Sequence record: PP261279.1
Source: Escherichia phage ECP2303
DNA: 64,000 nucleotides
Strand: one strand, 5' to 3'
Of the stretch, positions 1,669-50,856 are shown piece after piece; position 1 is the first letter of the stretch; each line of letters starts with the position of its first letter. A program made the translations under genes and the position numbers. Below the pieces are notes generated by a model. That model saw nothing but the letters and a program-made list of their open reading frames with translations, did not search any database and was not told the DNA's origin.

Positions 1669-2346
1669 TTAGTGCGGTCCACTTGTCTCGCCATCAGGGC
1701 AAGAGTGGGTATGACCTTTATATTCTGCATAGAATGAATCCAAATCCACACCAGCAGCAGTTATAATTCTACCAGATGGGTCTATTGTGGCACCATTCAT
1801 TCTGATATTTCCATCCACAGCAGCTCGCAAATTGGCAGCCCCGTTAGTGAAAGAAAACTCCCCGCTACTGTCGCACCGTAATGTCCCACCAGGTGTTTGA
1901 AGCTCAAAATCGCCAGAAGGTGTCAGTTTAAAATAAACCATATCATTCCATAACTCTACGTTATCAGGATCGATCTGTAAAGCGTTTGAGTCTGAATGAA
2001 CAGAGGTGATTGCCCACCCTGGAAACAGGCCGTGAGTTTGTTGATCGTCGTTATTGTTTTCATTTCTCTCTGAAAACTGCAATCCTACAACATCCCCAGC
2101 CTTAATAGGAAGTGTTAACCTTGCCTTTCCGCTGTTTGCAGACATCACCTGAATTGGAACGTCATAGATAAGAGGGTATCTCTCCACATCCCCGTCATCA
2201 AACGTGGTTTCAGCTATTGGCTGCACGGCTGCAGAAGGTATACTGTAGTCAACACTGACAACTCTGGCCCTGATACTGGTGTGATAGTCCCTCATTATTT
2301 TTTCTATAAAGGATCTTACAGCAGCATCTTTCCTATTTATTGCCAT
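1669..2346 (-). CDS. baseplate spike / gpV-like protein
   Basis: 225 aa with a C-terminal GHTHS (HxH) motif as in P2 gpV / Mu gp45-type spikes; position after the hub-like gene. Confidence 0.45.
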   Translation of the reverse strand: MAINRKDAAVRSFIEKIMRDYHTSIRARVVSVDYSIPSAAVQPIAETTFDDGDVERYPLIYDVPIQVMSANSGKARLTLPIKAGDVVGLQFSERNENNNDDQQTHGLFPGWAITSVHSDSNALQIDPDNVELWNDMVYFKLTPSGDFELQTPGGTLRCDSSGEFSFTNGAANLRAAVDGNIRMNGATIDPSGRIITAAGVDLDSFYAEYKGHTHSCPDGETSGPH

Positions 2347-3344
2347 TATACCTCCTCAGTTTTGTCAACAACTCCACCCACTGTTTCCCCAAGGCCAAGC
2401 TCTGTAGTGTAATCACCGCCTTCTATGGTGCCCTTATGATGCACCGTGATCACCTTATAGAAGCCTGTATATTGCCTGCTTTTAAGATAAATAGTGGACT
2501 CTGGGAGGATAGCTCCGTTAAGGCATGTGGTTACAGTAAGGCCAACATCCTCTCTCGGGTTTTTCTTTTTCTTACGTGTGCCACCTTTCGCAGCAGCTTT
2601 AGCTTTTCGCTTTTTAGCAGGTTCTGGGTTTTTAGGGGTAGGTGATCCGTGCATCCCAGACTCTGCACTTATTTCAAACACAGAGTCTTTAAACCTTTTT
2701 CCAACCTTAGTCCAATACAAAGCCCCATCCTGAACGCTAAATGTGGAGTTGGTCAGCCTTGCAAACCTGCGGAGGTTCTCTGCAGTGTTTCCAGAGAAAG
2801 CCATAGAGTATTGCAAAGTCTGGTTTCCAAAACCAACAACCCTACCTTTTGGCAAGTTCATATCCTTCAGCAGGTCATTAAGCACAGAGTTCAGAGGTGT
2901 ACCTTTCTGATAAGATCTTGTGCTTTGGCACTTAATGATGTTCTCAGTGCCATCCCCAAAGATGAACTTAGTTTTTCTGGTCGGGCCTTCCCATCTGTCC
3001 TCAACAAACTCTACAGTTCCAGAGAATATCAACTGGTTCTCATTGTCATAGCCAGCCTCAAACATAACTGCAAGAGCATCAGCTTGATGCATATCCAGAT
3101 AGTTAACTGTATCGTCAGACAGGTTGTAAACTGTCACATAGCCTTTGTTTGGCTCTTTGGTATTGTCCTTTTGTATGTCAAACTCTATATTGGCAGCACC
3201 AGTGTCCGAGCTAATCTCATAAACTCCGGAATCACTCTCTCCTTTCTTTTCAACAGATTTTGGGATATTGGTTTTTGATTTACCGCCATGCTCTACAGGA
3301 CGACCAAATAATAATCGCCATGTTCTACGTCTGTACTCTGCCAT
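2346..3344 (-). CDS. baseplate hub-like / tail protein
   Basis: 332-aa ORF downstream of the tape measure with a basic KKRKAKAAAKGGTRKKKK patch; call is by position only. Confidence 0.35.
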   Translation of the reverse strand: MAEYRRRTWRLLFGRPVEHGGKSKTNIPKSVEKKGESDSGVYEISSDTGAANIEFDIQKDNTKEPNKGYVTVYNLSDDTVNYLDMHQADALAVMFEAGYDNENQLIFSGTVEFVEDRWEGPTRKTKFIFGDGTENIIKCQSTRSYQKGTPLNSVLNDLLKDMNLPKGRVVGFGNQTLQYSMAFSGNTAENLRRFARLTNSTFSVQDGALYWTKVGKRFKDSVFEISAESGMHGSPTPKNPEPAKKRKAKAAAKGGTRKKKKNPREDVGLTVTTCLNGAILPESTIYLKSRQYTGFYKVITVHHKGTIEGGDYTTELGLGETVGGVVDKTEEV

Positions 3345-3724
3345 TATTCTAACCCTTGCTGTTCCTTGTAAAGATCAACTGGGGTGCCGTATACAAGCTG
3401 TAGCTCGGATCTTGCTCCAAGGTTGTATCTTCCAACCCTGCCCCAATATTGATCATCTTTAAACGACAGCGCCATCAATCTACCTTTCGGTAAATCGTCT
3501 CTGTAATGCAGTCCGTCTAAGATATCTTGACAAGCTGTTACTTTTCTGGTTACTAAAGGGCTGTCACCTACCGGACCAAGGGATAACCACCAAGACTCAT
3601 CCCTCTCATTCCATTGCATACGCATTTCATATGTTTCATTGTCTAAAACAACACGCATGGTTTGATCAGGAAAGCCGTCAATGTCCCACACAAAGGTGAT
3701 TATGCACCAATCTTTAAGCTCCAT
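3344..3724 (-). CDS. tail protein, hypothetical
   Basis: 126-aa ORF, start overlaps the upstream stop (translational coupling) in the tail module. Confidence 0.4.
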   Translation of the reverse strand: MELKDWCIITFVWDIDGFPDQTMRVVLDNETYEMRMQWNERDESWWLSLGPVGDSPLVTRKVTACQDILDGLHYRDDLPKGRLMALSFKDDQYWGRVGRYNLGARSELQLVYGTPVDLYKEQQGLE

Positions 3725-3736
3725 TACACGCTCCCC

Positions 3737-4648
3737 TTATTTTCCGTTAACTTTGTTGTAGTTTCCCTGCTCAGATGGGACTATGGTAGAAGGTCTTCCA
3801 TATTCCTGGTAATACCAATCCGCAGCAGATTGGGTAACACCGTTTTCATCTGTCCACATCATAGATTTGTATGGCTGCCACTCTTCTGCAGCATTTGTGG
3901 ATGCAGTGTCTGCAAATGCCCCTGTGTCCCTCTTGTTACCTACGTTACTGCCATTCTTACAATCGTTGACAGCACCTTTTTGCTGGGTCTTGCCTACTTT
4001 CTTAGGGTTGCTGTATACAGTTGCATTAACAACCTTGTTCAAGTAGAATGTGCGGAACTCTGTAAGTTCTACATCAAACACCATCGCAGCACCTTCACCA
4101 ACAGACTTGTTGGCAGAAAGACTGGTTATGATGTAGTTCTCAAGGAGCCTCTCCTCGGTAACCAAAGAAACCAACTGGCGCTTATTAATGATCTCAGTCA
4201 AAGCCTCCAGTGCAGCGCCTGGTCGCATAGATGCTGCAGGGTTTTTAGAGTCAGTATTCCTGTCAATGTAGTTTTGCTCATAGATTATGTGTGGTGATGT
4301 ATTTACCCTACCAGTAAAAGAAAATACACCATCTTTAATTACAGCGTGGTCTGACAGGGTAGATTTATCTTCCACCGCAAAATCAGTCTTATCAACAGAA
4401 TGTTTGAAAGAGTAATTCTCAATCTGATCGAAGATGATGGCAAGATCGTTAGTAAAGTTTTTGCCCTTCATCTCCGTATTGCGACCACCATAGTTAAGAC
4501 CGCTGACAAACATAGTGTACTTTACATCGCTTTCAGTTTGTTGCTCTGCCTTTTCAGCCTTTGGAGATTTAACCTCTTGAGGCTTGTACAGGTCTTTTTC
4601 ATCAACTATATTGCTTGGCATAACCTCTCCAGGACACTCCGATACCAT
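3737..4648 (-). CDS. tail protein, hypothetical
   Basis: 303-aa ORF immediately downstream of the tape measure gene and its terminator. Confidence 0.4.
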   Translation of the reverse strand: MVSECPGEVMPSNIVDEKDLYKPQEVKSPKAEKAEQQTESDVKYTMFVSGLNYGGRNTEMKGKNFTNDLAIIFDQIENYSFKHSVDKTDFAVEDKSTLSDHAVIKDGVFSFTGRVNTSPHIIYEQNYIDRNTDSKNPAASMRPGAALEALTEIINKRQLVSLVTEERLLENYIITSLSANKSVGEGAAMVFDVELTEFRTFYLNKVVNATVYSNPKKVGKTQQKGAVNDCKNGSNVGNKRDTGAFADTASTNAAEEWQPYKSMMWTDENGVTQSAADWYYQEYGRPSTIVPSEQGNYNKVNGK

Positions 4649-13069: not shown

Positions 13070-14080
13070 TTAGCCACCGTTTTTCAGAGTTACTTTAACA
13101 ACCAACTCTGGACGGGTGTTAACTGCCAGCATGGAAGTTTCAGATTCAATCTTCTCTTCACGCAGGTATGCAGAGTGTTTGTACCACATATACAGTTCCT
13201 GTGCTGGAGTGTTTGCTTCGTTAACATCATCTGCCGGAGCAAAGTGCAGCTGGAACATCTGATCAATACCCATCGGCAGAATGCGAGCTTCTTTCTTAGG
13301 AATATTGCCAGAGATATCTTCGATAAAGGTGATACCTTTATGTTCAAACACACGGTATACGCTGTCTTGACCGCCAGCACCAAGACGGCGACGCAGAGGT
13401 TCCTGAGCAGAGCCGTAATAGGTGTATGCCAGTTCTACCAGCGGGTGATGGGTAATAGCACTGAAGAACTCTGGTGAGCACAGAGCTACAATACGATAGC
13501 CAGCTGCGTTATCACCAGCTTGCAGTGCGATGTGCAGACGAGCTTCTTCCAGAACCTCCATAGGATCCTGATCTGCTTTTGCAGGGTCAATCTCAACAGA
13601 TTTCTGTTCAACACCCCACAGAGTGTAGTAGTCATACTGACAGGTGGTGTCACCAGGTGCATAGGATTTACCCAGAATAGCCTGGAACAGCGCTTTCTCA
13701 CGCAGTGCTTCATGAGAAACACGGATACGGCGAACAACGCGGGTTACTACGTCCTGAACAGTTTTCGGAGCATCAGGGGTGAAGTAACGACGGAAGTTCT
13801 GAACATCTGCGGCAGTGATGCCTTTGTCCAGAGGGAAGAACGGGATGTTCAGGTTTTTAACCTGGGCACGTTCACTACCAACGTAGTTACGCTCACCACC
13901 ACGACGGCGTGCCGGAATGTCGGTTACAACTTCATCAACACGCTCGATCTGAGCAATCGTTGAGGTGCCGAGACGGGTTTCGAACAGATCCATACCAGTA
14001 ATCAGTCGGAATTGGCGCGGAACAAGTTCCAGAGTAGCACCTAAATCAACAATGCCAAATTCATCTTTACGAGTAATCAT
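13070..14080 (-). CDS. major capsid protein
   Basis: 336 aa, follows the decoration and scaffold genes in lambda-like order and is followed by the strongest terminator in the window. Confidence 0.7.
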   Translation of the reverse strand: MITRKDEFGIVDLGATLELVPRQFRLITGMDLFETRLGTSTIAQIERVDEVVTDIPARRRGGERNYVGSERAQVKNLNIPFFPLDKGITAADVQNFRRYFTPDAPKTVQDVVTRVVRRIRVSHEALREKALFQAILGKSYAPGDTTCQYDYYTLWGVEQKSVEIDPAKADQDPMEVLEEARLHIALQAGDNAAGYRIVALCSPEFFSAITHHPLVELAYTYYGSAQEPLRRRLGAGGQDSVYRVFEHKGITFIEDISGNIPKKEARILPMGIDQMFQLHFAPADDVNEANTPAQELYMWYKHSAYLREEKIESETSMLAVNTRPELVVKVTLKNGG

Positions 14081-14127: not shown

Positions 14128-14517
14128 TTACTCATCACCAAGGGTCTGGACTTGAACCTTGTTACCAAGGGCCTCAAGCTTGTCTAACACAGCCTGTGCT
14201 GCTTTAGCGCCACCAGTTGCCAGCAATTTATCCTTGGCAAAAGTAACACCACGTACAGCAACAACCAGTTTATATTTCTTTGTGCCAAGAGGTTCAGCGA
14301 TATGCACTTTACCAGCAGAGTCTGGAATTAAAGCACGATCCACCAGAACGCCGTAAGCGTCTGAACCGTCCTGATTGGCAATGCTACCATCTTTGGTCAC
14401 AACCGTGCCAGCGTGGTGATGCTCTGTCAGTGTAATTTCCATCTCTTTAAAATTGTAGCCAGCATCGCTAGAATCAACTTTGCCGAGCACGATATCAGAA
14501 TATTGAGCGGTAATCAT
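14128..14517 (-). CDS. head decoration protein (lambda D-like)
   Basis: 129-aa Gly/Ala-rich protein immediately upstream of the capsid gene, the position lambda gpD occupies. Confidence 0.4.
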   Translation of the reverse strand: MITAQYSDIVLGKVDSSDAGYNFKEMEITLTEHHHAGTVVTKDGSIANQDGSDAYGVLVDRALIPDSAGKVHIAEPLGTKKYKLVVAVRGVTFAKDKLLATGGAKAAQAVLDKLEALGNKVQVQTLGDE

Positions 14518-14537: not shown

Positions 14538-15515
14538 TTATTTGGTAGATTCTGCACGTGCACGAGCAAGTGCTTTTGCAACGTTTTCAGCAAGAATTTC
14601 TTCTGCGGATTTTGCAATATCATCCACAACAGGTTCGCCATCATTACCATGTTCAGTGGTGGCAAACTCTTCTTTGGTTTTATGCACCTCTGCTTCCAGC
14701 TCTTTAATTTTGGCTTGAGCTTTCTCCAGCATAGCTACGATAGGTTCGTTAGCTTTTTCCAGCATGAAGTCAACCAGGGTTGCATGATCTTCTTCACCAA
14801 CAAAGCTTAAAGCTTGAGCTTTAGCCAGCATTTTAGCTTTTTCAACTTCAACCTGGGCCTTGATGATTTCTTCAGCTTTACTCTGGGTTGCTTTCAGCTC
14901 TTCTACTTGCTTCAGCAGATCCAGATACTCTTTAGTTTTGGTTACGTCCACCGGATTCTCCTCGGTATTTGCGGATTTTGCAACATCATCCACCTCGGTA
15001 GTTTTATCCACCTCAGTAGGTTCCTGTACCGCCTTGATCAGGTTCCCTTCTTTATCGAAGAGATCAGCGGTTACTTGTTCAAAAATCTGTTGTGTTTTTA
15101 ACAGGCTGTACTGATCTACCACACTAAGCTGCTTGCCTTCTTTTGCAGCTTTATGAATGGTCACGTTATCACAACGCTCTTCCAGCCATGCAATGCAAGA
15201 CTCTGCGTCAGCTTGCGCCCATTCCCAATCAGGATGCTCTTTAGCCCAAGCTTCCTCTTCAATCTCAAAACCAAGCATGTGTGCGAGTGCTTTGGCATCG
15301 TCATACCACATATCGAAGAAACGACGCAGGTATTCTTCAAAACTCAGCTCCACAGTAACTTGGCGAAGTGCCTTAACAATATCGTCTGTTAACTGCTCAG
15401 GCTGAAGATCACTCTTCATCAAAAGAGATACAGGTCTGTTGTTAGCGCTATAGCCTTGAGCCTTATGGCACAGGGCAATCCCCTTCTCTTTAATAGTGAT
15501 TGTTTTTTCAGACAT
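14538..15515 (-). CDS. scaffolding protein (putative)
   Basis: 325 aa, acidic with long predicted coiled-coil stretches (EEL/KEL repeats), between portal and capsid genes. Confidence 0.5.
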   Translation of the reverse strand: MSEKTITIKEKGIALCHKAQGYSANNRPVSLLMKSDLQPEQLTDDIVKALRQVTVELSFEEYLRRFFDMWYDDAKALAHMLGFEIEEEAWAKEHPDWEWAQADAESCIAWLEERCDNVTIHKAAKEGKQLSVVDQYSLLKTQQIFEQVTADLFDKEGNLIKAVQEPTEVDKTTEVDDVAKSANTEENPVDVTKTKEYLDLLKQVEELKATQSKAEEIIKAQVEVEKAKMLAKAQALSFVGEEDHATLVDFMLEKANEPIVAMLEKAQAKIKELEAEVHKTKEEFATTEHGNDGEPVVDDIAKSAEEILAENVAKALARARAESTK

Positions 15516-15934
15516 TATTCATTGCCCTCTTCTACAACACTGATCCCGAAATTTACGTTGGTAATTTCGCCCGTCTCTTCATCAACATTGCCTGTTGCCT
15601 GAATGCTTAGGCCACCAACAATGCCAGCCTTCTTAGCTTCCCATAATTCAGGATTATTGTATTTAACTTTAGCAACCCAAGAGCCAGCCTTGATGACCTG
15701 CTCAGTACCAATTACTACAACATCAAACTCTTCTTGAATCCACGTCTTTTCAATAGTGAAAGCATCTGTAGAGGTCAAGTGGAAAAGGTTTTCAGAAACT
15801 AGGCCTGCGGCGTATGCTGCGTCCCAATTATCTTTAGCCTTTTTGATGGTGTCTTTACTCATCCACTCACCGTGAGCGTCTTTAGTGTCCGGTTCGTAGA
15901 TGATTTCGTAGGAAATCATTTCTTCCTGTGGCAT
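15515..15934 (-). CDS. head morphogenesis protein, hypothetical
   Basis: Track ORF 15515..16090 trimmed to an internal Met with a GGGGAA Shine-Dalgarno so it no longer overlaps the portal gene; coordinates approximate. Confidence 0.35.
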   Translation of the reverse strand: MPQEEMISYEIIYEPDTKDAHGEWMSKDTIKKAKDNWDAAYAAGLVSENLFHLTSTDAFTIEKTWIQEEFDVVVIGTEQVIKAGSWVAKVKYNNPELWEAKKAGIVGGLSIQATGNVDEETGEITNVNFGISVVEEGNE

Positions 15935-16001
15935 CTTATTCCCCATGTGGATTATTTTATCACGCCAAAGGAGGTTTTGCAACCCCCTGTGTTGATAATT
16001 T

Positions 16002-17558
16002 TTAATTTTCCATGTTGGATATGGAATTATCTCTGGTTGATGACATCTTAGAAGTGCCGTTGCCAGTGGATCCTGCAGCCATACCATCACCAGCCCTGCT
16101 GATATCCTGGCCCAAAAGCTTCATCAGCTCTTCTTGATCCATGTCTTCGTCAAATCTTTCATCAAACCCGCCTACTTCAAGAATCTTATTAATTACTGTA
16201 GGAGTTTTTGGCAAGTAACCTACAGCACCGATCCTCTGGACAAACTTGGAGAAGCTCTCCATGTCCACTTCTTCAATCAGACCAGGTTTCAGTTTAGGCA
16301 TATCATCATCTTCAAGGATGATACCATTCAATGCCAGAAGCTGTGGAATAAGATCTTTATTGAAGGCCTCAGTGATAATATCTATATCACGCTGAACAAA
16401 ATGCCCATGGATGGATTGTTTTGACTCAGACAGAGAGAAGGACCCAACGTTATCGTTACCAAGGTTAATAAAGCCAGCACCGAAACGGTCAAGAATCGCC
16501 TTCTTACGGGCATCAATCAAATCTTTAGTGGAATACTGCTTACCCATACCATCAACCCCCTTCAGGGTCATGGAGTAAAGCTCTTTACCAGACTTATCTC
16601 TATCAGACGGAAGTATAAAGAAACTTTGCTCCCCACTATGGGCGTTTGCTGCGTCCAACATAAGATCTGCAACCATTCTCCCTTCCATCGAATTCGGGTC
16701 AATGCTGGCCTTGTTCAAAATATTGGAAGGAATTTTCAGCTCAAGCACACCACCAAGGTCTTTGGAGCAGCCAACAACCTCAAGGTTTTCAATCAAAACT
16801 TTCTCACGGAAAGATCTGTAGCAACCTATCATCGGTGACACACCTGCAGGATTAGATTCTGTTCCTGACAGAGTCATGAGCATAAGCTTTTTAGCAGGGA
16901 TGAAAATTTCAGGCTCATTAAAGCCTTTTGAAGGCATTGCAGCAAGAGGACCAGCCCAGCGTGCATTCTGCGTGTTTAGAAATGCATTAGGTGATTGATA
17001 AATACCTGTCAGTGTTCTACTATTCTTGTCAAAGACAAACGGCTCTGATCTGGACAAACTGGCCTGTGGTCGGAACGCAATCTTATCAATAAGAAGCATC
17101 CCGGCGTATTTACCTTCTTTCTCTCTGCGGTATACTTTCTCAAACAGTGAAAAACCATACTCGTTAAAGGTAGCTGCGCTTCTTGCAATATCTCGAAGAG
17201 TTTGTTGGTTTGCCAAATTACGCAAAGAATACTCTACAAGCTCGGCAGCTTTCTTAGAGTCTTCACTTTTAACATTATAAAGTATCTTAAAATCATTAAA
17301 TGCTTTCGTGATGAAAACATATTTTGTATCTAAGGCAGTAGCAACTGTGGAATCACATTTCATAGTTTCCACTGTAGCAATCAGCTGAGGCCAACGCAAT
17401 TCCTCAACCATCATAGATTGTGATTCTGCCATAATTTGGGAAAGTGCGCCAGAACCGATCTCACTCATACGAACATTATGAGTTGGTGCGCCTGCGTTCC
17501 CAGATTTATTCACAGTTTTGGCTGTGGCGTTGTGTTTCCTGCGGTTCTTTTTGGACAC
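16002..17558 (-). CDS. portal protein (putative)
   Basis: 518 aa, immediately downstream of the terminase large subunit gene. Confidence 0.6.
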   Translation of the reverse strand: MSKKNRRKHNATAKTVNKSGNAGAPTHNVRMSEIGSGALSQIMAESQSMMVEELRWPQLIATVETMKCDSTVATALDTKYVFITKAFNDFKILYNVKSEDSKKAAELVEYSLRNLANQQTLRDIARSAATFNEYGFSLFEKVYRREKEGKYAGMLLIDKIAFRPQASLSRSEPFVFDKNSRTLTGIYQSPNAFLNTQNARWAGPLAAMPSKGFNEPEIFIPAKKLMLMTLSGTESNPAGVSPMIGCYRSFREKVLIENLEVVGCSKDLGGVLELKIPSNILNKASIDPNSMEGRMVADLMLDAANAHSGEQSFFILPSDRDKSGKELYSMTLKGVDGMGKQYSTKDLIDARKKAILDRFGAGFINLGNDNVGSFSLSESKQSIHGHFVQRDIDIITEAFNKDLIPQLLALNGIILEDDDMPKLKPGLIEEVDMESFSKFVQRIGAVGYLPKTPTVINKILEVGGFDERFDEDMDQEELMKLLGQDISRAGDGMAAGSTGNGTSKMSSTRDNSISNMEN

Positions 17559-17660
17559 AAGCTTTACCCCTCAAAACAGTATAACAAAATAGCCCTCGTG
17601 TCAGAGGGCTAGTATCTCCGATTACTCTATTCTACCACATCTAATTAAGATTGGCAACAC

Positions 17661-19208
17661 TTAGATAAAACGCTTGAACATAGAAGGTGATGAGATTGAT
17701 GGAATCACACAAGGCAGCGCTACCTCCTCTTTCTCTAGGAAATTAATCGCAGAAGCTACACAGTCGGCCCAGTCGTCTTTTCTGTTAAATGTTGATCTTT
17801 CCCCGTTGAACTTTTCAAGTTCAGTCAGAAATGCTTCCAGAGTGTCAGGATGGAAACTGGATTTTACAATCCTCACCATTCCTTGTTGGGCAAGATTGGC
17901 AAAAGGTGAGAACCTTGTCAGTTTAGATTTGTTGGAAGGCATTGGATCTTCTTCAACCCTGAACCCTTCGGCGAGCAAGGATCTGGATGAGGTTAAGAAC
18001 TCACTCTTACCTGCCTGGCCGGGGTCCACAGAAAATACGATTATGCAATCATCTCCATCAAACTGTGCCTGTTTCCTGATGATCACATCTCGTTCCCCAG
18101 CCTTTTTACAGAACTTGCCTTCCAGACCTGTGGAATACCTACCGTCATCCACGTTCTCAGGACAATAATCTCCGGACAGGTAATAAAAGCCGTCGCTATC
18201 TTTACTTACCTTAACACTGGCGGTAAAGTCAGGAAATTTATTACCGGAAGTTCTCTCGGTCCCTGCCTTATCCCATGCCCTGCAAGATACTGATCCAAGA
18301 GGTACTCTATCGGCATCCCGAAGGAAAGATCTTTGGAAATAGTTTGCACCCTCAGGTTTGGCAAACCAGTTGCCATGAAGAAGCTGGGCTTTTTCAAGCT
18401 CTGGCAGACCTTCAAGGAAAGCAAGGTATTCTGGGTTGTCTCTCAAGCAGACAGGATTATCGAAAATTGTTGCGCCTATAAACGAGAATGACAACGGTCT
18501 TGGCTTGATCTCCACACCCAGTCCGTTAACCGTGGTGTATTTCTCTATTAACTCTTCTTTAGAGTCTCCCCAAATAAATTCACCGTCGCGTCGGATAAAA
18601 TATCTTTTCTTACCACATTTCTCCGGATCTGGATACCCTTCATCGTCCAACCACCACCTAACCAGTTTGGCAAGCATGTGTTCTGAGTCGGGGTTACAGC
18701 TGATAACCATTCTTGATGGATACTTTGACTGAGATCGCAGACGAGACATCAAATAGTCTATCTGCTCCCATTCGAATTGCGTGCCTTCATCGAAGCAAAC
18801 CATGGTGTACTCAAGGCCTTGATGGTTAAGCTTATCTTGGACATACTCCATGTGGCAGTATTTTACAACGGCCCCCTTTTTGCTCCTATCCCACTTGCCA
18901 GTGCTCGGATCAAACCGTGGAAAAATAAACTTATGATCCTTCTCTCTGAACTTTGGTTTAATGTTTTCAGGCAGATCACTGTAAATAGCTACTGCTTTAG
19001 GCCATAGCCCACCCTCACCTTCCAACTGGGGAGTTGTTCTTCGGAACATAACCACAGAGCTGTGCGGGTCATCAATAATTTTAAGCGGCATTAGCTGCAA
19101 GAGGAACGACTTGCCAGACCCAGCTGCACCTCCGATCACCAAAATATCTGCATCGTTCTCTAGGATCATCTTCTGCTTTTCAGAACACGGTCCGTAAATC
19201 TTAGACAT
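17661..19208 (-). CDS. terminase large subunit
   Basis: 515 aa with an N-terminal Walker A (VIGGAAGSGKS) and a C-terminal nuclease-like region. Confidence 0.85.
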   Translation of the reverse strand: MSKIYGPCSEKQKMILENDADILVIGGAAGSGKSFLLQLMPLKIIDDPHSSVVMFRRTTPQLEGEGGLWPKAVAIYSDLPENIKPKFREKDHKFIFPRFDPSTGKWDRSKKGAVVKYCHMEYVQDKLNHQGLEYTMVCFDEGTQFEWEQIDYLMSRLRSQSKYPSRMVISCNPDSEHMLAKLVRWWLDDEGYPDPEKCGKKRYFIRRDGEFIWGDSKEELIEKYTTVNGLGVEIKPRPLSFSFIGATIFDNPVCLRDNPEYLAFLEGLPELEKAQLLHGNWFAKPEGANYFQRSFLRDADRVPLGSVSCRAWDKAGTERTSGNKFPDFTASVKVSKDSDGFYYLSGDYCPENVDDGRYSTGLEGKFCKKAGERDVIIRKQAQFDGDDCIIVFSVDPGQAGKSEFLTSSRSLLAEGFRVEEDPMPSNKSKLTRFSPFANLAQQGMVRIVKSSFHPDTLEAFLTELEKFNGERSTFNRKDDWADCVASAINFLEKEEVALPCVIPSISSPSMFKRFI

Positions 19209-47957: not shown

Positions 47958-48746
47958 ATGGGTCGAGCTAAAGAAACAAAACGCATGCGTGATGAAGCTA
48001 GAGAGGCTCGCAAATCTGATCGCCTGCGTAAGGCTGCTGAGAAATTTGCTGACGAAAGAGAGCACACCGCTCCAGCTCTCCGACCAATGAATAAGAAGCA
48101 GCAAAAGTATCTTGATTATCTAGGGTCACGTAAGATTATTATTGTAAACGGTGTGTTTGGATCCGGTAAGACATTTATGGCATCTGCATATGCAGGTGAT
48201 CTTCTGCGTAAGAACGAGATTGATAAGATCATTGTTGCACGTCCTTACGTCCAGACAGGAAAGACTTCAGGATTTAAACCTGGAAATGCAATGCAGAAAC
48301 TGTGGCCCTATCTTAGAAGCATGATGGACACGATTTGTCGTCGTGTTGGCAAAGGTGCTTTTGCAGCAATGCTTGGGGACGGTCAGAACAGCCGTATCGA
48401 GATTTGTGAGGTTGAAAGCATTCGTGGTCGTAGTTTTGATGAACGATGCTTTGTCCTTATTGATGAAGCACAGCAAACTAACCCTGAAGAAATGTTGTCA
48501 ATTATCACAAGGATCTCTGATCAGGCCACCCTTGTAATTATGGGTGATAATAGCCAACGTGACATCCCTGGTAAATCTGGCCTTGCATGGGTGACAGATT
48601 TCTTTACTCGCCATCCAGATCCTGATGTTGGAATGATTAGCTTTGATAGTCCAGACGATGTCGTTCGTTCCGGGTTAGGCCGTCAGATTGCACTCAATCT
48701 TATTGAGGATCGTGCAAATCATATTTGGACTCCTGTTTCCGAGTAA
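47958..48746 (+). CDS. phoH: PhoH-like ATPase
   Basis: 262 aa; Walker A GVFGSGKTF and Walker B LIDEAQ. Confidence 0.8.
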   Translation: MGRAKETKRMRDEAREARKSDRLRKAAEKFADEREHTAPALRPMNKKQQKYLDYLGSRKIIIVNGVFGSGKTFMASAYAGDLLRKNEIDKIIVARPYVQTGKTSGFKPGNAMQKLWPYLRSMMDTICRRVGKGAFAAMLGDGQNSRIEICEVESIRGRSFDERCFVLIDEAQQTNPEEMLSIITRISDQATLVIMGDNSQRDIPGKSGLAWVTDFFTRHPDPDVGMISFDSPDDVVRSGLGRQIALNLIEDRANHIWTPVSE

Positions 48747-48751
48747 TACAG

Positions 48752-48775
48752 AAGGGTGGTTATTCCACCCTTAAA
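48752..48775 (+). terminator. intrinsic terminator after phoH
   Basis: GGGTGG-TTATT-CCACCC hairpin followed by TTAAATAT. Confidence 0.55.
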
Positions 48776-48790
48776 TATCTAAAACAGTTG

Positions 48791-48819
48791 TTGACAAACA
48801 GGTGAGCTTTAGATATTAT
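48791..48819 (+). promoter_or_regulatory. sigma70-like promoter
   Basis: TTGACA-N17-TATTAT. Confidence 0.55.
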
Positions 48820-48849
48820 TATTGGACAAAACAAGGAGAAGGGCACAGT

Positions 48850-49161
48850 ATGGCTACAATACAAGAGAGACTGAATAAAATATACTGCCTGTTTGTGCAT
48901 AACGGCGAGACAATTTTGGCAAATAAGGGATTCAAGAATGTGTGGACCAAGGACAGTGGTGGTAATATAATCAACCTAGCGTTGCTACGTGAGCGCCGAC
49001 ACAGATTCTTTATCGAGTCTCGGATTATTGAAAGCAGCACCTGCTACAGAACAGGCGATAAAGTAATTGTTGACAATGATACGTGGTATGTGGTAGACTG
49101 GCAATCATTGAGCTGTGATGCTTCTGACAATCGTAAGTATTCTATAGTGATTGCTAAATAA
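48850..49161 (+). CDS. hypothetical protein
   Basis: Trimmed to the ATG with AAGGAGAAGGG Shine-Dalgarno; 103 aa. Confidence 0.5.
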   Translation: MATIQERLNKIYCLFVHNGETILANKGFKNVWTKDSGGNIINLALLRERRHRFFIESRIIESSTCYRTGDKVIVDNDTWYVVDWQSLSCDASDNRKYSIVIAK

Positions 49162-49221
49162 AGGTAAATGTGAATCAGGTTTAAATAAATAGCTTTCAAC
49201 TTCCAATATTAAGGATTTCTC

Positions 49222-50271
49222 ATGAATTTAACACCTCGCAGCACCATGGTACACGGCATGAAAGAAAAACAGAACGGTTTCGAACCTATGAGTAATAAAA
49301 TGTTCGGTATGCCGGGTGGTATTATGGAGACATACAGCTACCCAACACCTGTTGTTGACCACGTTCTTTATATCGACGATTTGGAAGACCTGCAGGATCA
49401 TATGTCTCGCCTGCAGACGATCCGTATGGCTCAGCCTGAAGAAAGCATTCGAGTGATCATTAACAGCCCTGGTGGTTGCGTGCACATTGCGATGGCTTAT
49501 CTGCAGGCATTCCGCGAGTCTCAGGCAAGCGTTGTTGCACATGCGGAAGGGATGTGCTGCTCTGCGGGAACAATCTTATGGCTGGGTTGCAAAGAACGTA
49601 CTGTGGCTCCGGACACAGAATTTATGTTCCACTACTATCAAGGTGGCACTTATGGTAACGGTGTGAACATGAATACTCAGGTCAGCTACTGGAAAAAGCG
49701 TTTCGAACGCCTGATCGAAAAATACTACGGTTGGGTGCTGACAGAAGATGAGATCGCATCCATCACAGCTGGTGGTGAAGTGTGGTTGGACGGAGAGGAG
49801 CTGGCAGCTCGAACTGGAGCTATCATTCTGGATGAAGGTAACATACAACGCATCCAGAACGGACAAAAACCGAAAAAGCTTCTGGCAAAAGGTGATGAAG
49901 AAGGTGTGTTAGGTGAAGCAGGTCTCCCGGAGATTCACCAGTGTACCTCTTTAGATGAGTTAGTTCATGCTGTTGAATCTGCAAAAGCTGGTGGTTCGAA
50001 AGGTGATGTTCACACTGTGTTCCTGAACCTGCAGATGGAAAGTGGTGAGACCGTTAAGATTGCCTTAGGTGAGATTACCTCAGAAGATCTGCAGCGATTC
50101 TCTGTCGTTGAACTTCAAGACATTTTGTCCCAATTGAAGACAACCCTAAACGGCGGTGAAGAGGTTAAGGTAAAAGATAAGACTCGCAAGCGTCTGGTGG
50201 ACAATATTATTAAAACAGCAAAAGAGCTCAATGAAAAAATCCTGGGTGCAGGAATTGTCGAAGAAGCTTAA
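49222..50271 (+). CDS. ClpP-family serine protease with C-terminal extension
   Basis: 349 aa; INSPGG, GMCCSAGT (Ser) and MFHYYQGG (His) match ClpP catalytic regions; extra ~150-aa acidic C-terminal domain. Confidence 0.65.
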   Translation: MNLTPRSTMVHGMKEKQNGFEPMSNKMFGMPGGIMETYSYPTPVVDHVLYIDDLEDLQDHMSRLQTIRMAQPEESIRVIINSPGGCVHIAMAYLQAFRESQASVVAHAEGMCCSAGTILWLGCKERTVAPDTEFMFHYYQGGTYGNGVNMNTQVSYWKKRFERLIEKYYGWVLTEDEIASITAGGEVWLDGEELAARTGAIILDEGNIQRIQNGQKPKKLLAKGDEEGVLGEAGLPEIHQCTSLDELVHAVESAKAGGSKGDVHTVFLNLQMESGETVKIALGEITSEDLQRFSVVELQDILSQLKTTLNGGEEVKVKDKTRKRLVDNIIKTAKELNEKILGAGIVEEA

Positions 50272-50283
50272 ACATTAATTCTA

Positions 50284-50306
50284 AAGCCCTCTTCGGAGGG
50301 CTTTTA
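50284..50306 (+). terminator. intrinsic terminator
   Basis: AAGCCCTC-TTCG-GAGGGCTT hairpin followed by TTAT. Confidence 0.65.
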
Positions 50307-50322
50307 TGATCTGGAGATTTGC

Positions 50323-50856
50323 ATGACTTGTGCTCGAAAACCTGATGAACAACGTAACGCCTACGATGAGTATGTGACACCGGAGTGGTGTGCAGAAGGG
50401 CTGTATGACCTTATTCCGTTCCCAGAAGACTGGACCTACTTAGAGCCTTGCAGGAATAGTGCCTCAGGTGTGTTCTACTCCCGTATGCCGTTAGGATCTG
50501 CATGGGGAGAAATCCAAGAAGGTGTTGACTATCTGAATACAGAATACAACCATGTTGACTGTATTATCACCAACCCACCATACAGTTTGGCTCGTGAGTT
50601 TGTAGACAAGGCGTTGAAAGATGCTGACGTAGTTATTATGCTTTTGCGTCTTAATTTTCTGGAAAGCAAAGCCAGATTTGAATGGTGGCTTGATAATGCA
50701 CCTACCACTGTGATCACAATATCTAAGCGTCCATCTTTTCAATCAAATGGCAGAACTGACGGGCAAGCATATGCATATTTTGTGTGGGATAAGAAAAACC
50801 GTTTAGGCTTGCCGCCGTTTATGTGGTTGGCACCCCCAGAGGTAGACCTGAAATGA
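50323..50856 (+). CDS. small DNA N6-adenine methyltransferase (orphan)
   Basis: 177 aa with an NPPY catalytic motif (CIITNPPYSLA). Confidence 0.6.
   Translation: MTCARKPDEQRNAYDEYVTPEWCAEGLYDLIPFPEDWTYLEPCRNSASGVFYSRMPLGSAWGEIQEGVDYLNTEYNHVDCIITNPPYSLAREFVDKALKDADVVIMLLRLNFLESKARFEWWLDNAPTTVITISKRPSFQSNGRTDGQAYAYFVWDKKNRLGLPPFMWLAPPEVDLK

Follow-up and report, generated by a model that had tools for sequence, protein, structure and literature searches.

ClpP and HslV are both cores of two-component ATP-dependent proteases. Phages also encode ClpP-like proteins on their own, annotated as ATP-dependent proteases (PHROG families 5410 and 1827), such as rV5 gp122, ICP1 gp211, PAK_P2 gp169 and Barbavirus gp072, which are encoded in surroundings of the same kind, close to PhoH and to genes of DNA metabolism. 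The rV5 protein has an entry in rV5 Table S3 and has been labelled "ClpP protease subunit" since 2013. In the searchable literature we found no experiment on this stand-alone family, nor anything relevant on the function of phage ClpP-like or HslV-like proteins.

A gene of this kind was analysed in Escherichia phage ECP2303, within a stretch of 64,000 nucleotides of the record PP261279.1 (the window). An earlier note on this DNA had placed the gene far from a head module in which no obvious maturation protease was seen, and had offered two alternatives for its product, a displaced prohead protease or a stand-alone protease with host or phage proteins as its targets.

The ClpP-like protein of ECP2303

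The gene for the ClpP-like serine peptidase occupies positions 49222-50271 of the plus strand, and its earlier reading as a real gene is confirmed by an ATG start, a translation of 349 aa and an AAGGA Shine-Dalgarno sequence at 49211-49215. It corresponds to rV5 gp122 and to PHROG 5410, the profile of which is matched over the full length with an E-value of 7.7e-155 (residues 24-345 on positions 4-322 of 323). The DNA of the window shows 100% identity to APECc02, and that of the gene 97% identity to rV5-derived isolates. More than 110 Vequintavirus records contain the gene, labelled as an ATP-dependent or ClpP-like protease, and the family reaches about 940 phage records. It is an ordinary member of an already known and annotated phage family.

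The first 43 residues (49222-49350, plus strand) form an N-terminal tail predicted to be disordered, with pLDDT values of 27-35 in the AlphaFold2 model; in an alignment of 21 family members Y40 and P41 were invariant and F28 and G29 nearly invariant. According to the alignment, this tail takes the place of the axial-loop and helix-A region of ClpP and has no counterpart in the E. coli protein. It is followed by the ClpP-fold catalytic domain (residues 45-215; 49354-49866, plus strand) and by a mostly disordered linker (residues 216-243; 49867-49950, plus strand), with pLDDT below 50 at residues 223-240, which differs in length and sequence among family members. The C-terminal domain (residues 244-342; 49951-50247, plus strand) consists of a helix, a beta-hairpin and a helix-loop-helix, with F293, E297 and R322 invariant, and its approximately 100 aa are confined to the Vequintavirinae-type members of the family. 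The acidic C-terminal extension described earlier is real, spanning residues 216-349 as a disordered linker and a folded part, but it is just mildly acidic: residues 200-349 have a pI of 5.06 and a charge of -7, not above that of the protease domain. We also considered that the C-terminal domain could be a capsid-targeting module shared with the scaffold, an idea that was rejected as BLASTP against the 325-aa scaffold gave nothing (E-values of 0.28 or worse).

The Pfam CLP_protease model matched residues 59-168 with 47.6 bits (cut-off of 20.2; E-value of 2.3e-12), the AlphaFold2 model showed a ClpP fold with the handle helix kept and a pLDDT of about 90 over residues 45-215, and the top Foldseek matches in the PDB were all ClpP, with a probability of 1.0, E-values of about 1e-9 and target TM-scores of about 0.7. 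Ser114 (codon 49561-49563) and His137 (codon 49630-49632) are invariant in the 21 family members, in nine stand-alone phage homologues and in E. coli ClpP, and the oxyanion Gly-Gly is invariant in all the homologues aligned. The position of Asp171 in ClpP is taken here by Glu186 (codon 49777-49779), by Gln in most other genera, and by Asp in the homologues of ICP1, KEY, PVA23 and XacN1. The ClpP catalytic signatures claimed earlier are confirmed in part, for the Ser and the His only. The positions of Asp171 and of Arg170 were mapped with the phmmer alignment, because past His122 the alignment that MAFFT gave with E. coli ClpP was unreliable. Such invariance of the Ser, the His and the oxyanion glycines argues for catalysis, and the protein would be active.

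The NCBIfam models for ClpP gave 33-39 bits and none of their cut-offs (228-309) was reached, and the model NF045542, for ClpP-related head maturation proteases, gave 60.3 bits, below its cut-off of 120. Several PHROG families of head maturation proteases matched the protein, with E-values between 1e-14 and 1e-21. For the catalytic domain, phrog_1684 and NF045542 scored 77 and 60 bits, versus 33 bits for TIGR00493, so by score this domain appears to be nearer to the ClpP-related head-maturation protease families of phages than to cellular ClpP.

The head module and its XkdF-type protease

The genes of the head module are found on the minus strand in the order portal, XkdF-like protease, scaffold, decoration and capsid. 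The portal protein (16002-17558) matches phrog_113 and Pfam Portal_Mu, the scaffolding protein (14538-15515; 325 aa, pI of 4.7) matches phrog_2970 and is named "head scaffold protein" in BASEL records, the head decoration protein (14128-14517) matches phrog_2680, and the major capsid protein (13070-14080) is of the lambda gpE type, with a Pfam Phage_cap_E match over residues 12-331 (E-value of 8e-40). By position, the best match of the scaffold in rV5 Table S3 is the ICP1 protein corresponding to gp124, identified as the scaffold by experiment. No sizeable N-terminal propeptide is cleaved off the major capsid protein, because the peptides of rV5 gp60 detected by mass spectrometry begin at residue 5.

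The gene at 15515-15934, also on the minus strand, encodes a prohead protease candidate of the XkdF type (Peptidase_S78_2) of 139 aa. It was matched by Pfam PF14550 with 64.6 bits (cut-off of 24; E-value of 1.1e-17) and by phrog_3017, "head maturation protease", with an E-value of 1.2e-13, and PF14550 was present in all of the 120 clusters listed from the 288 of its homologues. In a subset of 16 diverse homologues D19, H21, H52 and S110 were invariant, the codons of His52 and Ser110 being at 15779-15781 and 15605-15607. Many GenBank records label it as "prohead protease" (BASEL), "XkdF-like serine protease" or "peptidase", and it is 41% identical to ICP1 gp125, labelled as a capsid protease. 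Contrary to what had been claimed, the head module does not lack a recognisable maturation protease: the protein matched by PF14550 and phrog_3017 was already labelled as one, and the anomaly of a protease-less head module is gone once it is recognised. A sequence-profile search gave no relative of the XkdF-like protease in the PDB, and we found no experiment on the cleavage of scaffold or head proteins by a protease of this type.

Proteases often exit the capsid once maturation is done, and because of this the absence of the ClpP-like protein from virions is weak evidence. By mass spectrometry, it was not among 19 virion proteins of rV5 or 26 of CB7, and the XkdF-like protein CB7_5 was detected in CB7 virions. 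The rV5 dataset is shallow; the portal gp64 was detected in it, the decoration protein gp61 was covered to 85%, and the scaffold was represented by only 2 spectra.

The protease slot downstream of PhoH

The ClpP-like gene is located about 33 kb from the head module, on the opposite strand and within the nucleotide-metabolism arm, where it follows NrdAB, NrdDG and PhoH, in agreement with the earlier note. Its conserved upstream neighbour is a PhoH-like ATPase (47958-48746, plus strand; BASEL annotation and synteny), and its conserved downstream neighbour is an N6-adenine DNA methyltransferase (50323-50856, plus strand; BASEL annotation, with weak Pfam matches to Dam and EcoRI_methylase). This cassette, PhoH ... 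protease - methyltransferase, is kept in four Vequintavirinae genera, and PhoH was found upstream of the protease slot in Seunavirus-like phages, Mydovirus, Certrevirus, ICP1, Barbavirus, Stephanstirmvirinae and Shewanella phage 1/4. In all nine lineages inspected, the ClpP-like homologues were never in the head module and had as neighbours genes for replication, for nucleotide metabolism or for other non-structural functions; examples are Barbavirus, a T4-like Schizotequatrovirus, the T5-like KEY, Pakpunavirus and the jumbo phage XacN1.

A sigma70-type promoter (TTGACA-17-TATTAT, 11/12 consensus positions) was found at 48791-48819 on the plus strand, equivalent to the rV5 promoter P121, which rV5 Table S4 places directly 5' of genes 121 and 122. 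Downstream of it lies a small gene (48850-49161, plus strand; 103 aa), corresponding to rV5 gp121 and phrog_5456 (E-value of 7e-38), for whose product no Pfam match was obtained. Orthology of this small upstream gene across genera was considered and rejected, as the position is occupied in other genera by a different family, phrog_7224, and ESCO13 gp080 and CR9 gp222 have no similarity. At the other end, an intrinsic terminator (GCCCTC-TTCG-GAGGGC-TTTTAT; 50286-50307, plus strand) was identified from the sequence, equivalent to rV5 t122, which Table S4 places immediately 3' of gene 122 with -14.9 kcal/mol; a simple scan overlooked it because its T-run has only 4 T. The late-promoter motif TGGTAAAATA was found on the structural arm, with one-mismatch copies just 5' of the portal and XkdF-like genes. 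Regarding expression, ICP1 gp211 was classed as "middle-late", with nucleotide-metabolism genes peaking at 12 min, a timing that comes from ICP1 and not from a Vequintavirus; no relevant transcriptomes of Vequintavirinae were found in the searchable literature. A relation of the ClpP-like gene to defence systems was also considered and discarded, as PADLOC gave no match for the protease or gp121, and its matches to PhoH were those of a generic P-loop.

The slot can be occupied by another peptidase. In Stephanstirmvirinae, a sister subfamily in which the XkdF-type protease is present, an HslV-like peptidase bearing Thr-Thr at its N terminus is encoded between PhoH and the orthologous methyltransferase, and an HslV-like peptidase is likewise found in the PhoH-adjacent slot of Shewanella phage 1/4. 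The methyltransferase of ECP2303 is 48% identical to that encoded downstream of the HslV-like gene in ESCO13, where one hypothetical gene (gp078) separates the two. Among Escherichia phage records, 218 have an XkdF-like gene, versus 106 with a ClpP-like plus 107 with an HslV-like gene, so that the counts are nearly complementary; the apparent absence of ClpP-like genes from Stephanstirmvirinae is based on these counts and on the initial 50 kb of the ESCO13 genome. Many ClpP-like and HslV-like copies carry their own C-terminal tail. In HslV-like proteins a tail motif was observed that resembles L-T-x-E-D-L-x-x-F-S-x-x-E-L; homology between the C-terminal motif of the ClpP-like protein and the HslV-like tail was considered and found to be unsupported, with hhalign probabilities of 21% for one sequence and 3% for profile-profile comparison.

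Probable role and relation to known proteases

The reading that we favour, with a probability of around 0.7, is that the ClpP-like protein is a non-structural accessory peptidase of ClpP fold that belongs to the replication and nucleotide-metabolism arm, head maturation being the job of the XkdF-type protease. What we infer for ECP2303 about activity, oligomeric state, host-unfoldase independence, substrates and timing is as follows. Catalysis would be carried out by Ser114 and His137, probably with Glu186 as the acid, in a protein transcribed together with one small upstream gene from what would be a host-type sigma70 promoter. By analogy with ClpP, it would most likely assemble into oligomeric rings that enclose a proteolytic chamber, and in the middle phase it would cleave peptides or unfolded proteins inside the infected cell. 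The C-terminal domain, on its flexible linker, is the best candidate for the choice of substrates or partners. Host Clp ATPases are probably not used in the canonical way, because the docking residues, the sensor pair of Arg and Asp and the gating loops of the N terminus all appear to be replaced.

It seems unlikely that the protein instead serves the AAA+ unfoldases of the host (ClpX, ClpA or other) as an alternative proteolytic core, with targets chosen by the C-terminal domain, so that a ring supplied by the phage, ClpP-like here and HslV-like in sister phages, redirects ATP-dependent degradation. Such a partnership would fit with a ClpP fold that keeps the handle helix, with the public label "ATP-dependent protease subunit", and with rV5 Table S3, where there is no Clp- or HslU-type unfoldase and the sole AAA+ ATPase given is of the MoxR type and encoded elsewhere in the genome; and the presence of HslV-like peptidases in the same slot of Stephanstirmvirinae and Shewanella phage 1/4 could equally mean that host unfoldases are borrowed. 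However, the hydrophobic pocket for ClpX/ClpA docking and the N-terminal axial loops of ClpP seem to be missing. By alignment only, the residues which we take to form the pocket for ClpX and ADEP in E. coli ClpP (Y60, Y62, F82, I90, M92, F112 and L114) correspond to R77, V/I79, E99, H107, E109, T127 and S/A129, that is, none of the seven is kept, and a charged or polar residue stands at each except for the V/I at the Tyr62 position, five of them being invariant and the other two showing conservative variation. In addition, R170 and D171 of E. coli ClpP become G185 and E/Q186 in the family, with loss of the Arg-Asp pair, the N-terminal loops are replaced by the disordered tail, and the scores are far under every NCBIfam cut-off for ClpP. 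That same tail could suggest a ClpP mimic, irrelevant as a catalyst, which would bind to the Clp machinery of the host or poison it, for example by docking a hydrophobic-Gly-hydrophobic motif into the pockets of host ClpP as the IGF loops of ClpX do. The tail, predicted as disordered, has a conserved F-G-[MFYLI] tripeptide, which is presumably similar to the IGF/IGL loops that ClpX and ClpA have, but this motif is missing from the homologues of ICP1, PAK_P2 and Barba, and the invariance of Ser114, His137 and the oxyanion Gly-Gly across homologues argues for catalysis; a mimic is highly improbable.

A second or displaced head-maturation protease, which would be directed into procapsids by the C-terminal domain and cut scaffold or internal proteins, alone or with the XkdF-like protein, is improbable too. 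In its favour, NF045542 is the best curated family and PHROG families of head maturation proteases match the protein; moreover, prohead proteases typically have a C-terminal extension, the homologue in ICP1 is "middle-late" and not early, and among the weakest tblastn matches the family merges gradually into genuine ClpP-like proteases of head modules. Nevertheless, the score for NF045542 is 60 bits against a cut-off of 120, and the canonical position is occupied by the S78_2 protease, which is more conserved among related phages (60-79% versus about 45% identity). The neighbourhood is non-structural in nine of nine lineages, T4-like and T5-like phages included. Phages of these two types possess prohead proteases of their own. 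The ClpP-like protein went undetected in virions, its promoter is of the sigma70 type and not late, and in related phages that have the XkdF-type head protease the slot is occupied by an HslV-like gene. Of the two alternatives in the earlier note, the stand-alone protease fits all the evidence gathered, and displacement started from a false premise, as the product of 15515-15934 belongs to the XkdF/S78_2 family, with invariant His52 and Ser110, and its relative ICP1 gp125 is part of the late capsid operon gp122-126. No link of the ClpP-like protein to head assembly emerged from its promoter, the virion lists or its absence from head modules. The note had named as evidence against its own proposal a maturation protease at 15515-15934 or in the scaffold region, together with a ClpP-like gene with no link to the head and no proteolytic activity; by computation, the first two are what we find, and the invariant Ser and His speak against the last.

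Beyond the favoured role as an accessory peptidase, it is possible, although we would not bet on it, that the slot after PhoH holds an interchangeable chambered-peptidase core, a portable "mini-proteasome" of the middle phase of phage infection. In this reading, several unrelated groups of large virulent phages fill the slot with a ClpP-like protein (Vequintavirinae, ICP1 and Barbavirus) or an HslV-like one (Stephanstirmvirinae and Shewanella phage 1/4). If true, this mini-proteasome would capture host unfoldases, or by itself reshape the host proteome, provide amino acids or break down defence proteins of the host, and it might also be the trigger recognised by immune systems that sense proteases. 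Bas48-59 are restricted by the CBASS system EcCdnG, and Bas51 is still restricted when the residues for sensing T4 gp21 are mutated; a 2023 paper on CBASS escape covers only Drexlerviridae. Should these proteins be shown to work in host takeover, to counter defences or to trigger immunity, they would constitute an accessory module of wide occurrence, and it would also become clear to which Vequintavirinae protease of the two a protease-triggered CBASS responds.

Compared with known systems, the ClpP-like protein has in common with bacterial ClpP (MEROPS S14; E. coli 1TYF) the fold with its handle helix, the SPGG oxyanion motif, and Ser and His in register. It differs from the E. coli protein in that identity is about 20%, a C-terminal addition of 134 aa is present, Asp171 is replaced by Glu (Gln in most genera) and Arg170 by Gly, the pocket is polar or charged, and the axial loops are replaced. 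The ClpP-related head maturation proteases (NF045542; PHROG 1684, 94, 2976 and 133) are the top-scoring curated relatives of its catalytic domain and also tend toward C-terminal extensions; unlike them, the protein reaches half of the cut-off score, is encoded outside the head module, coexists with a separate S78_2 protease and is absent from the virion lists. Among stand-alone phage relatives, ICP1 gp211 is 36% identical over the protease core, with the Ser, the His, the Gly-Gly and the PhoH neighbourhood in common, whereas its C-terminal extension is unrelated to the Vequintavirinae-type domain; the PAK_P2, KEY, Barba and XacN1 homologues have short charged tails or none. The XkdF-like protein, for its part, shares with XkdF/Peptidase_S78_2 prohead proteases the Pfam match, the invariant His and Ser and the position between portal and scaffold, but many of these relatives have an N-terminal extension of about 65 aa, whereas the copy here is short (139 aa) and lacks it, and the scaffold is a separate gene. 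Finally, the HslV-like peptidases (ESCO13 gp079; "putative proteasome component" in Bas62) have in common with the ClpP-like protein the slot, a chambered-protease core and an acidic C-terminal tail, with an unrelated fold, that of an Ntn-hydrolase with an N-terminal Thr as the nucleophile.

Fold and C-terminal domain of the ClpP-like protein

The ClpP-like gene is a real ORF of 1050 bp (49222-50271, plus strand; 349 aa) with an ATG start and a Shine-Dalgarno sequence, AAGGA, at 49211-49215 (+). Megablast recovered a copy of 100% identity from Escherichia phage APECc02 and copies of 90-99% identity from over 110 Vequintavirus records, where the labels are "ATP-dependent protease", "ClpP-like protease" or "hypothetical protein". 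The product of the same gene in rV5, the type phage, is gp122, a "ClpP (ATP-dependent) protease subunit" of 349 aa and pI 5.0 (Kropinski et al. 2013, PMC3606486, Table S3), and the protein gave a full-length match to PHROG 5410 (E 7.7e-155). Therefore, the gene belongs to a known, named family and was already annotated; a search of the accessible literature revealed no study of its function.

Pfam CLP_protease matched residues 59-168 above threshold (47.6 vs 20.2 bits), and in an AlphaFold2 model built on 21 family members residues 45-215 adopt a confident ClpP fold, with Foldseek returning only ClpP structures from the PDB (E about 1e-9, probability 1.0). The ClpP catalytic signatures reported in the earlier note hold for Ser114, His137 and the SPGG oxyanion motif, which match those of E. 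coli ClpP (sequence checked against 1TYF, then aligned to the family) and are invariant both in the family and in the stand-alone homologues of eight other phages (seven lineages beyond Vequintavirus), but not for the third position of the triad, in such a way that ClpP Asp171 corresponds to Glu186. Most other Vequintavirinae genera have Gln there; the ICP1, KEY, PVA23 and XacN1 homologues have Asp.

Residues 1-43, the N-terminal tail, and 223-240, a linker, are disordered in the model, and residues 244-342 form a second folded region consisting of a helix, a beta-hairpin and a helix-loop-helix, in which F293, E297 and R322 are invariant. The extension previously described as acidic is thus real and includes a folded part, but its acidity is mild (residues 216-349 have a pI of about 5.1 and a net charge of -6) and comparable to that of the remaining protein. 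Its folded domain had no match in Pfam, no similarity to it was found in the scaffold protein, and its single significant match in BFVD was an unnamed 303-aa viral protein. A profile search over 1.84 billion representative proteins detected it only in the ClpP-like protease family; it is a lineage-specific domain.

Two motifs are conserved in the disordered N-terminal tail, F-G-[MFYLI] (F28-G29, 49303-49308) and Y-P (Y40-P41, 49339-49344). The former is similar to IGF/IGL, the tripeptide with which ClpX and ClpA dock, and may serve for binding or be a site of processing. The homologues of ICP1, PAK_P2 and Barba do not have this tail.

The XkdF-like protease of the head module

The minus-strand head module encodes, in this order, TerL (17661-19208), the portal (16002-17558), a 139-aa protein (15515-15934), a 325-aa acidic scaffold (14538-15515), the decoration protein (14128-14517) and the major capsid protein (13070-14080). 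The 139-aa protein matched Pfam PF14550, Peptidase_S78_2 or XkdF (E 1.1e-17, 64.6 vs 24 bits), and also phrog_3017, "head maturation protease". It has 288 homologue clusters, with PF14550 in all 120 among the matches listed; a diverse subset that was aligned is 55-79% identical, and D19, H21, H52 (NLFH) and S110 (GGLS) do not vary within a subset of 16 sequences. GenBank labels for this gene include "prohead protease" (BASEL phages), "XkdF-like putative serine protease", "peptidase" and "prohead core protein protease", with "head scaffold protein" for the adjacent gene. An XkdF-like protease thus lies between portal and scaffold, and the premise of a head module devoid of protease was wrong; as far as sequence analysis reaches, the 15515-15934 product is the maturation protease.

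Its homologue in ICP1 (41% identity) is gp125, the "capsid protease", encoded within the late capsid operon gp122-126. The scaffold of ICP1 was demonstrated by experiment to be gp124 (PMC10002752), which is the best match of the rV5 325-aa protein judging by accession order in rV5 Table S3. In Certrevirus CB7 the XkdF-like protein was detected in virions. Capsid-protein peptides of rV5 start at residue 5, and therefore the capsid protein is not trimmed at its N terminus; likely substrates of the protease are the scaffold and minor proteins.

Several RefSeq (NC_011041, NC_041871, NC_024134, NC_028248) and pharokka-style annotations label the XkdF-type ORF (15515-16090, minus strand) as "DNA methyltransferase", as does phrog_1530, which matches it at E 4.6e-54. 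This looks like a propagated misannotation that would conceal the head protease from readers of product names. Many homologues have an N-terminal extension of ~65 aa with the consensus MKY.SIADLPASVS.LSL.QKSK..., which the Vequintavirus protein lacks, and the rV5 annotation has 190 aa, being prolonged upstream into the portal gene. The large terminase is here a single uninterrupted ORF of 515 aa (17661-19208, minus strand); for rV5, splicing of TerL from pieces and a neighbouring HNH endonuclease gene were described (PMC3606486, Table S3).

Expression, gene neighbourhood and alternative readings

The ClpP-like gene and an upstream 103-aa ORF (48850-49161, +; phrog_5456) are bracketed by a sigma70-type promoter, TTGACA-17-TATTAT (48791-48819, +), and an intrinsic terminator, GCCCTC-TTCG-GAGGGC-TTTTAT (50286-50307, +), which are P121 and t122 of the rV5 tables. 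The proposed late-promoter motif of rV5, TGGTAAAATA, is present on the structural arm, with one-mismatch minus-strand copies about 70 nt upstream of the portal start (17628-17637) and 19 nt upstream of the XkdF-like protease start (15953-15962); at up to one mismatch it is enriched, with 17 matches in the window against 6.1 expected. In the other three Vequintavirinae genera inspected phrog_5456 is replaced by the unrelated phrog_7224 (L004, Seunavirus-like, 2999-3490; L005, Mydovirus, 2990-3442; L006, Certrevirus, 3052-3528), whose stop codon touches or overlaps the start of the protease gene, which suggests that the two are coupled in translation.

The location among nucleotide-metabolism genes was confirmed, with NrdAB, glutaredoxin, NrdDG and PhoH upstream and an N6-adenine methyltransferase downstream, and a Seunavirus-like Salmonella phage, Mydovirus and Certrevirus all share the arrangement PhoH - (DprA-like) - small ORFs - ClpP-like - methyltransferase. 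The ClpP-like core was found by tblastn in about 940 phage records, and in all the cases inspected the neighbours of the gene serve replication, nucleotide metabolism or other non-structural functions and are never head genes. It is found between PhoH and Dam in Barbavirus, between frd and a recombination protein in the T4-like Schizotequatrovirus, after a dNMP kinase in the T5-like phage KEY, between ligase and primase in the jumbo phage XacN1, and in PAK_P2 among small genes of unknown function, about 3.5 kb upstream of dCMP deaminase and DNA ligase. T4-like and T5-like phages have their own prohead proteases, so this stand-alone class is accessory. In ICP1 the homologue is gp211, 36% identical over the core but with a different C-terminal extension, encoded three genes after PhoH, within a block that has nrdB as its upstream and DNA ligase as its downstream boundary. 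By RNA-seq it is "middle-late", with nucleotide-metabolism genes peaking at 12 min, and the capsid operon peaks at 16 min (PMC7567579).

These data favour, with a probability of about 0.7, a picture in which a ClpP-fold Ser/His peptidase would be made from a host-type promoter alongside DNA-metabolism genes, probably forming rings that cleave peptides or unfolded proteins in the infected cell, with the C-terminal domain on its flexible linker choosing partners or substrates, and the head being matured by the predicted XkdF-type protease. Its best supported part is that the protein is non-structural and not the prohead protease; oligomer, substrates and independence from host ATPases are inferences. 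Accordingly, of the two interpretations in the earlier note only the stand-alone protease is supported, and the displaced prohead protease is not.

A genuine ATP-dependent core using host unfoldases would agree with the intact fold, Ser and His, but is unlikely. What we take to be the ClpX/ADEP docking pocket of E. coli ClpP (Y60, Y62, F82, I90, M92, F112, L114) aligns to R77, V/I79, E99, H107, E109, T127 and S/A129 in the family, and ClpP Arg170 to an invariant Gly185; therefore, the "ATP-dependent protease subunit" label is not supported by the predicted docking features. NCBIfam ClpP models gave 33-39 bits against cut-offs of 228-309. The top NCBIfam match, the ClpP-related head maturation protease NF045542 (60 bits vs a cut-off of 120), would fit a second head protease, which the gene neighbourhoods make still less probable. 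Neither the rV5 virion dataset (19 proteins) contains gp122 nor the 26 CB7 virion proteins a ClpP-like protein, a weak negative, since the rV5 dataset is shallow and a protease may be lost from the capsid once this has matured. Least credible of all is a non-catalytic mimic acting on the host Clp machinery, against which the invariant Ser and His speak.

According to a recent preprint (PMC12991175), cleavage by phage proteases activates EcCdnG, a CBASS enzyme that restricts Bas48-59 (Vequintavirinae), and Bas51 is still restricted by EcCdnG mutated at the T4 gp21-sensing residues.

HslV-like peptidases in the PhoH-adjacent slot

Remaining interest lies in the function of this widespread accessory class and in its replacement next to PhoH. 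Stephanstirmvirinae (phAPEC8- and phi92-like phages) have the XkdF-type protease as well. In ESCO13 (NC_047770.1, 29126-32136; compare 47958-50856 here) the position after PhoH is occupied by a 230-aa HslV-family peptidase that begins Met-Thr-Thr, has an acidic C-terminal tail and matches T. maritima HslV at E 4.9e-9; a single hypothetical gene (gp078) separates it from a methyltransferase 48% identical to that of the window. The phi92-type Bas62 (1721-4622) has the same arrangement, the gene being labelled "putative proteasome component". Shewanella phage 1/4 (1635-3223) shows PhoH - HslV ... ligase, and its peptidase likewise has an N-terminal Met-Thr-Thr and an acidic tail at the C terminus; the orthologous adenine methyltransferase follows the HslV-like gene in Stephanstirmvirinae but not in this phage. 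Homology between the C-terminal tails of both peptidases was considered and rejected, the common short motif having no statistical support. Aeromonas phage 4L372D (Plateaulakevirus, 1932-3385) has two adjacent HslV-family genes, the second with a long C-terminal extension ending in a helix-extended-helix-like motif.

"Escherichia" records number 218 for the XkdF-like, 106 for the ClpP-like and 107 for the HslV-like protein, and "Campylobacter" records 23, 18 and 5. Some 18-23 records bear the name "Campylobacter phage" (GenBank MG0656xx, host C. jejuni). In the genes tested they share 90-99% identity with E. coli phages of the rV5-like or phAPEC8-like kind, and they are probably mislabelled or contaminant coliphages. 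These counts, taken by record, suggest a near mutual exclusion of the ClpP-like and HslV-like genes in phages with the XkdF-type protease. Thus, phages with the same kind of head protease use either of two unrelated chambered peptidases at the PhoH-adjacent locus. This speaks against a role of the ClpP-like protein that is bound to head assembly, and in favour of a general "chambered peptidase" function during the middle phase.
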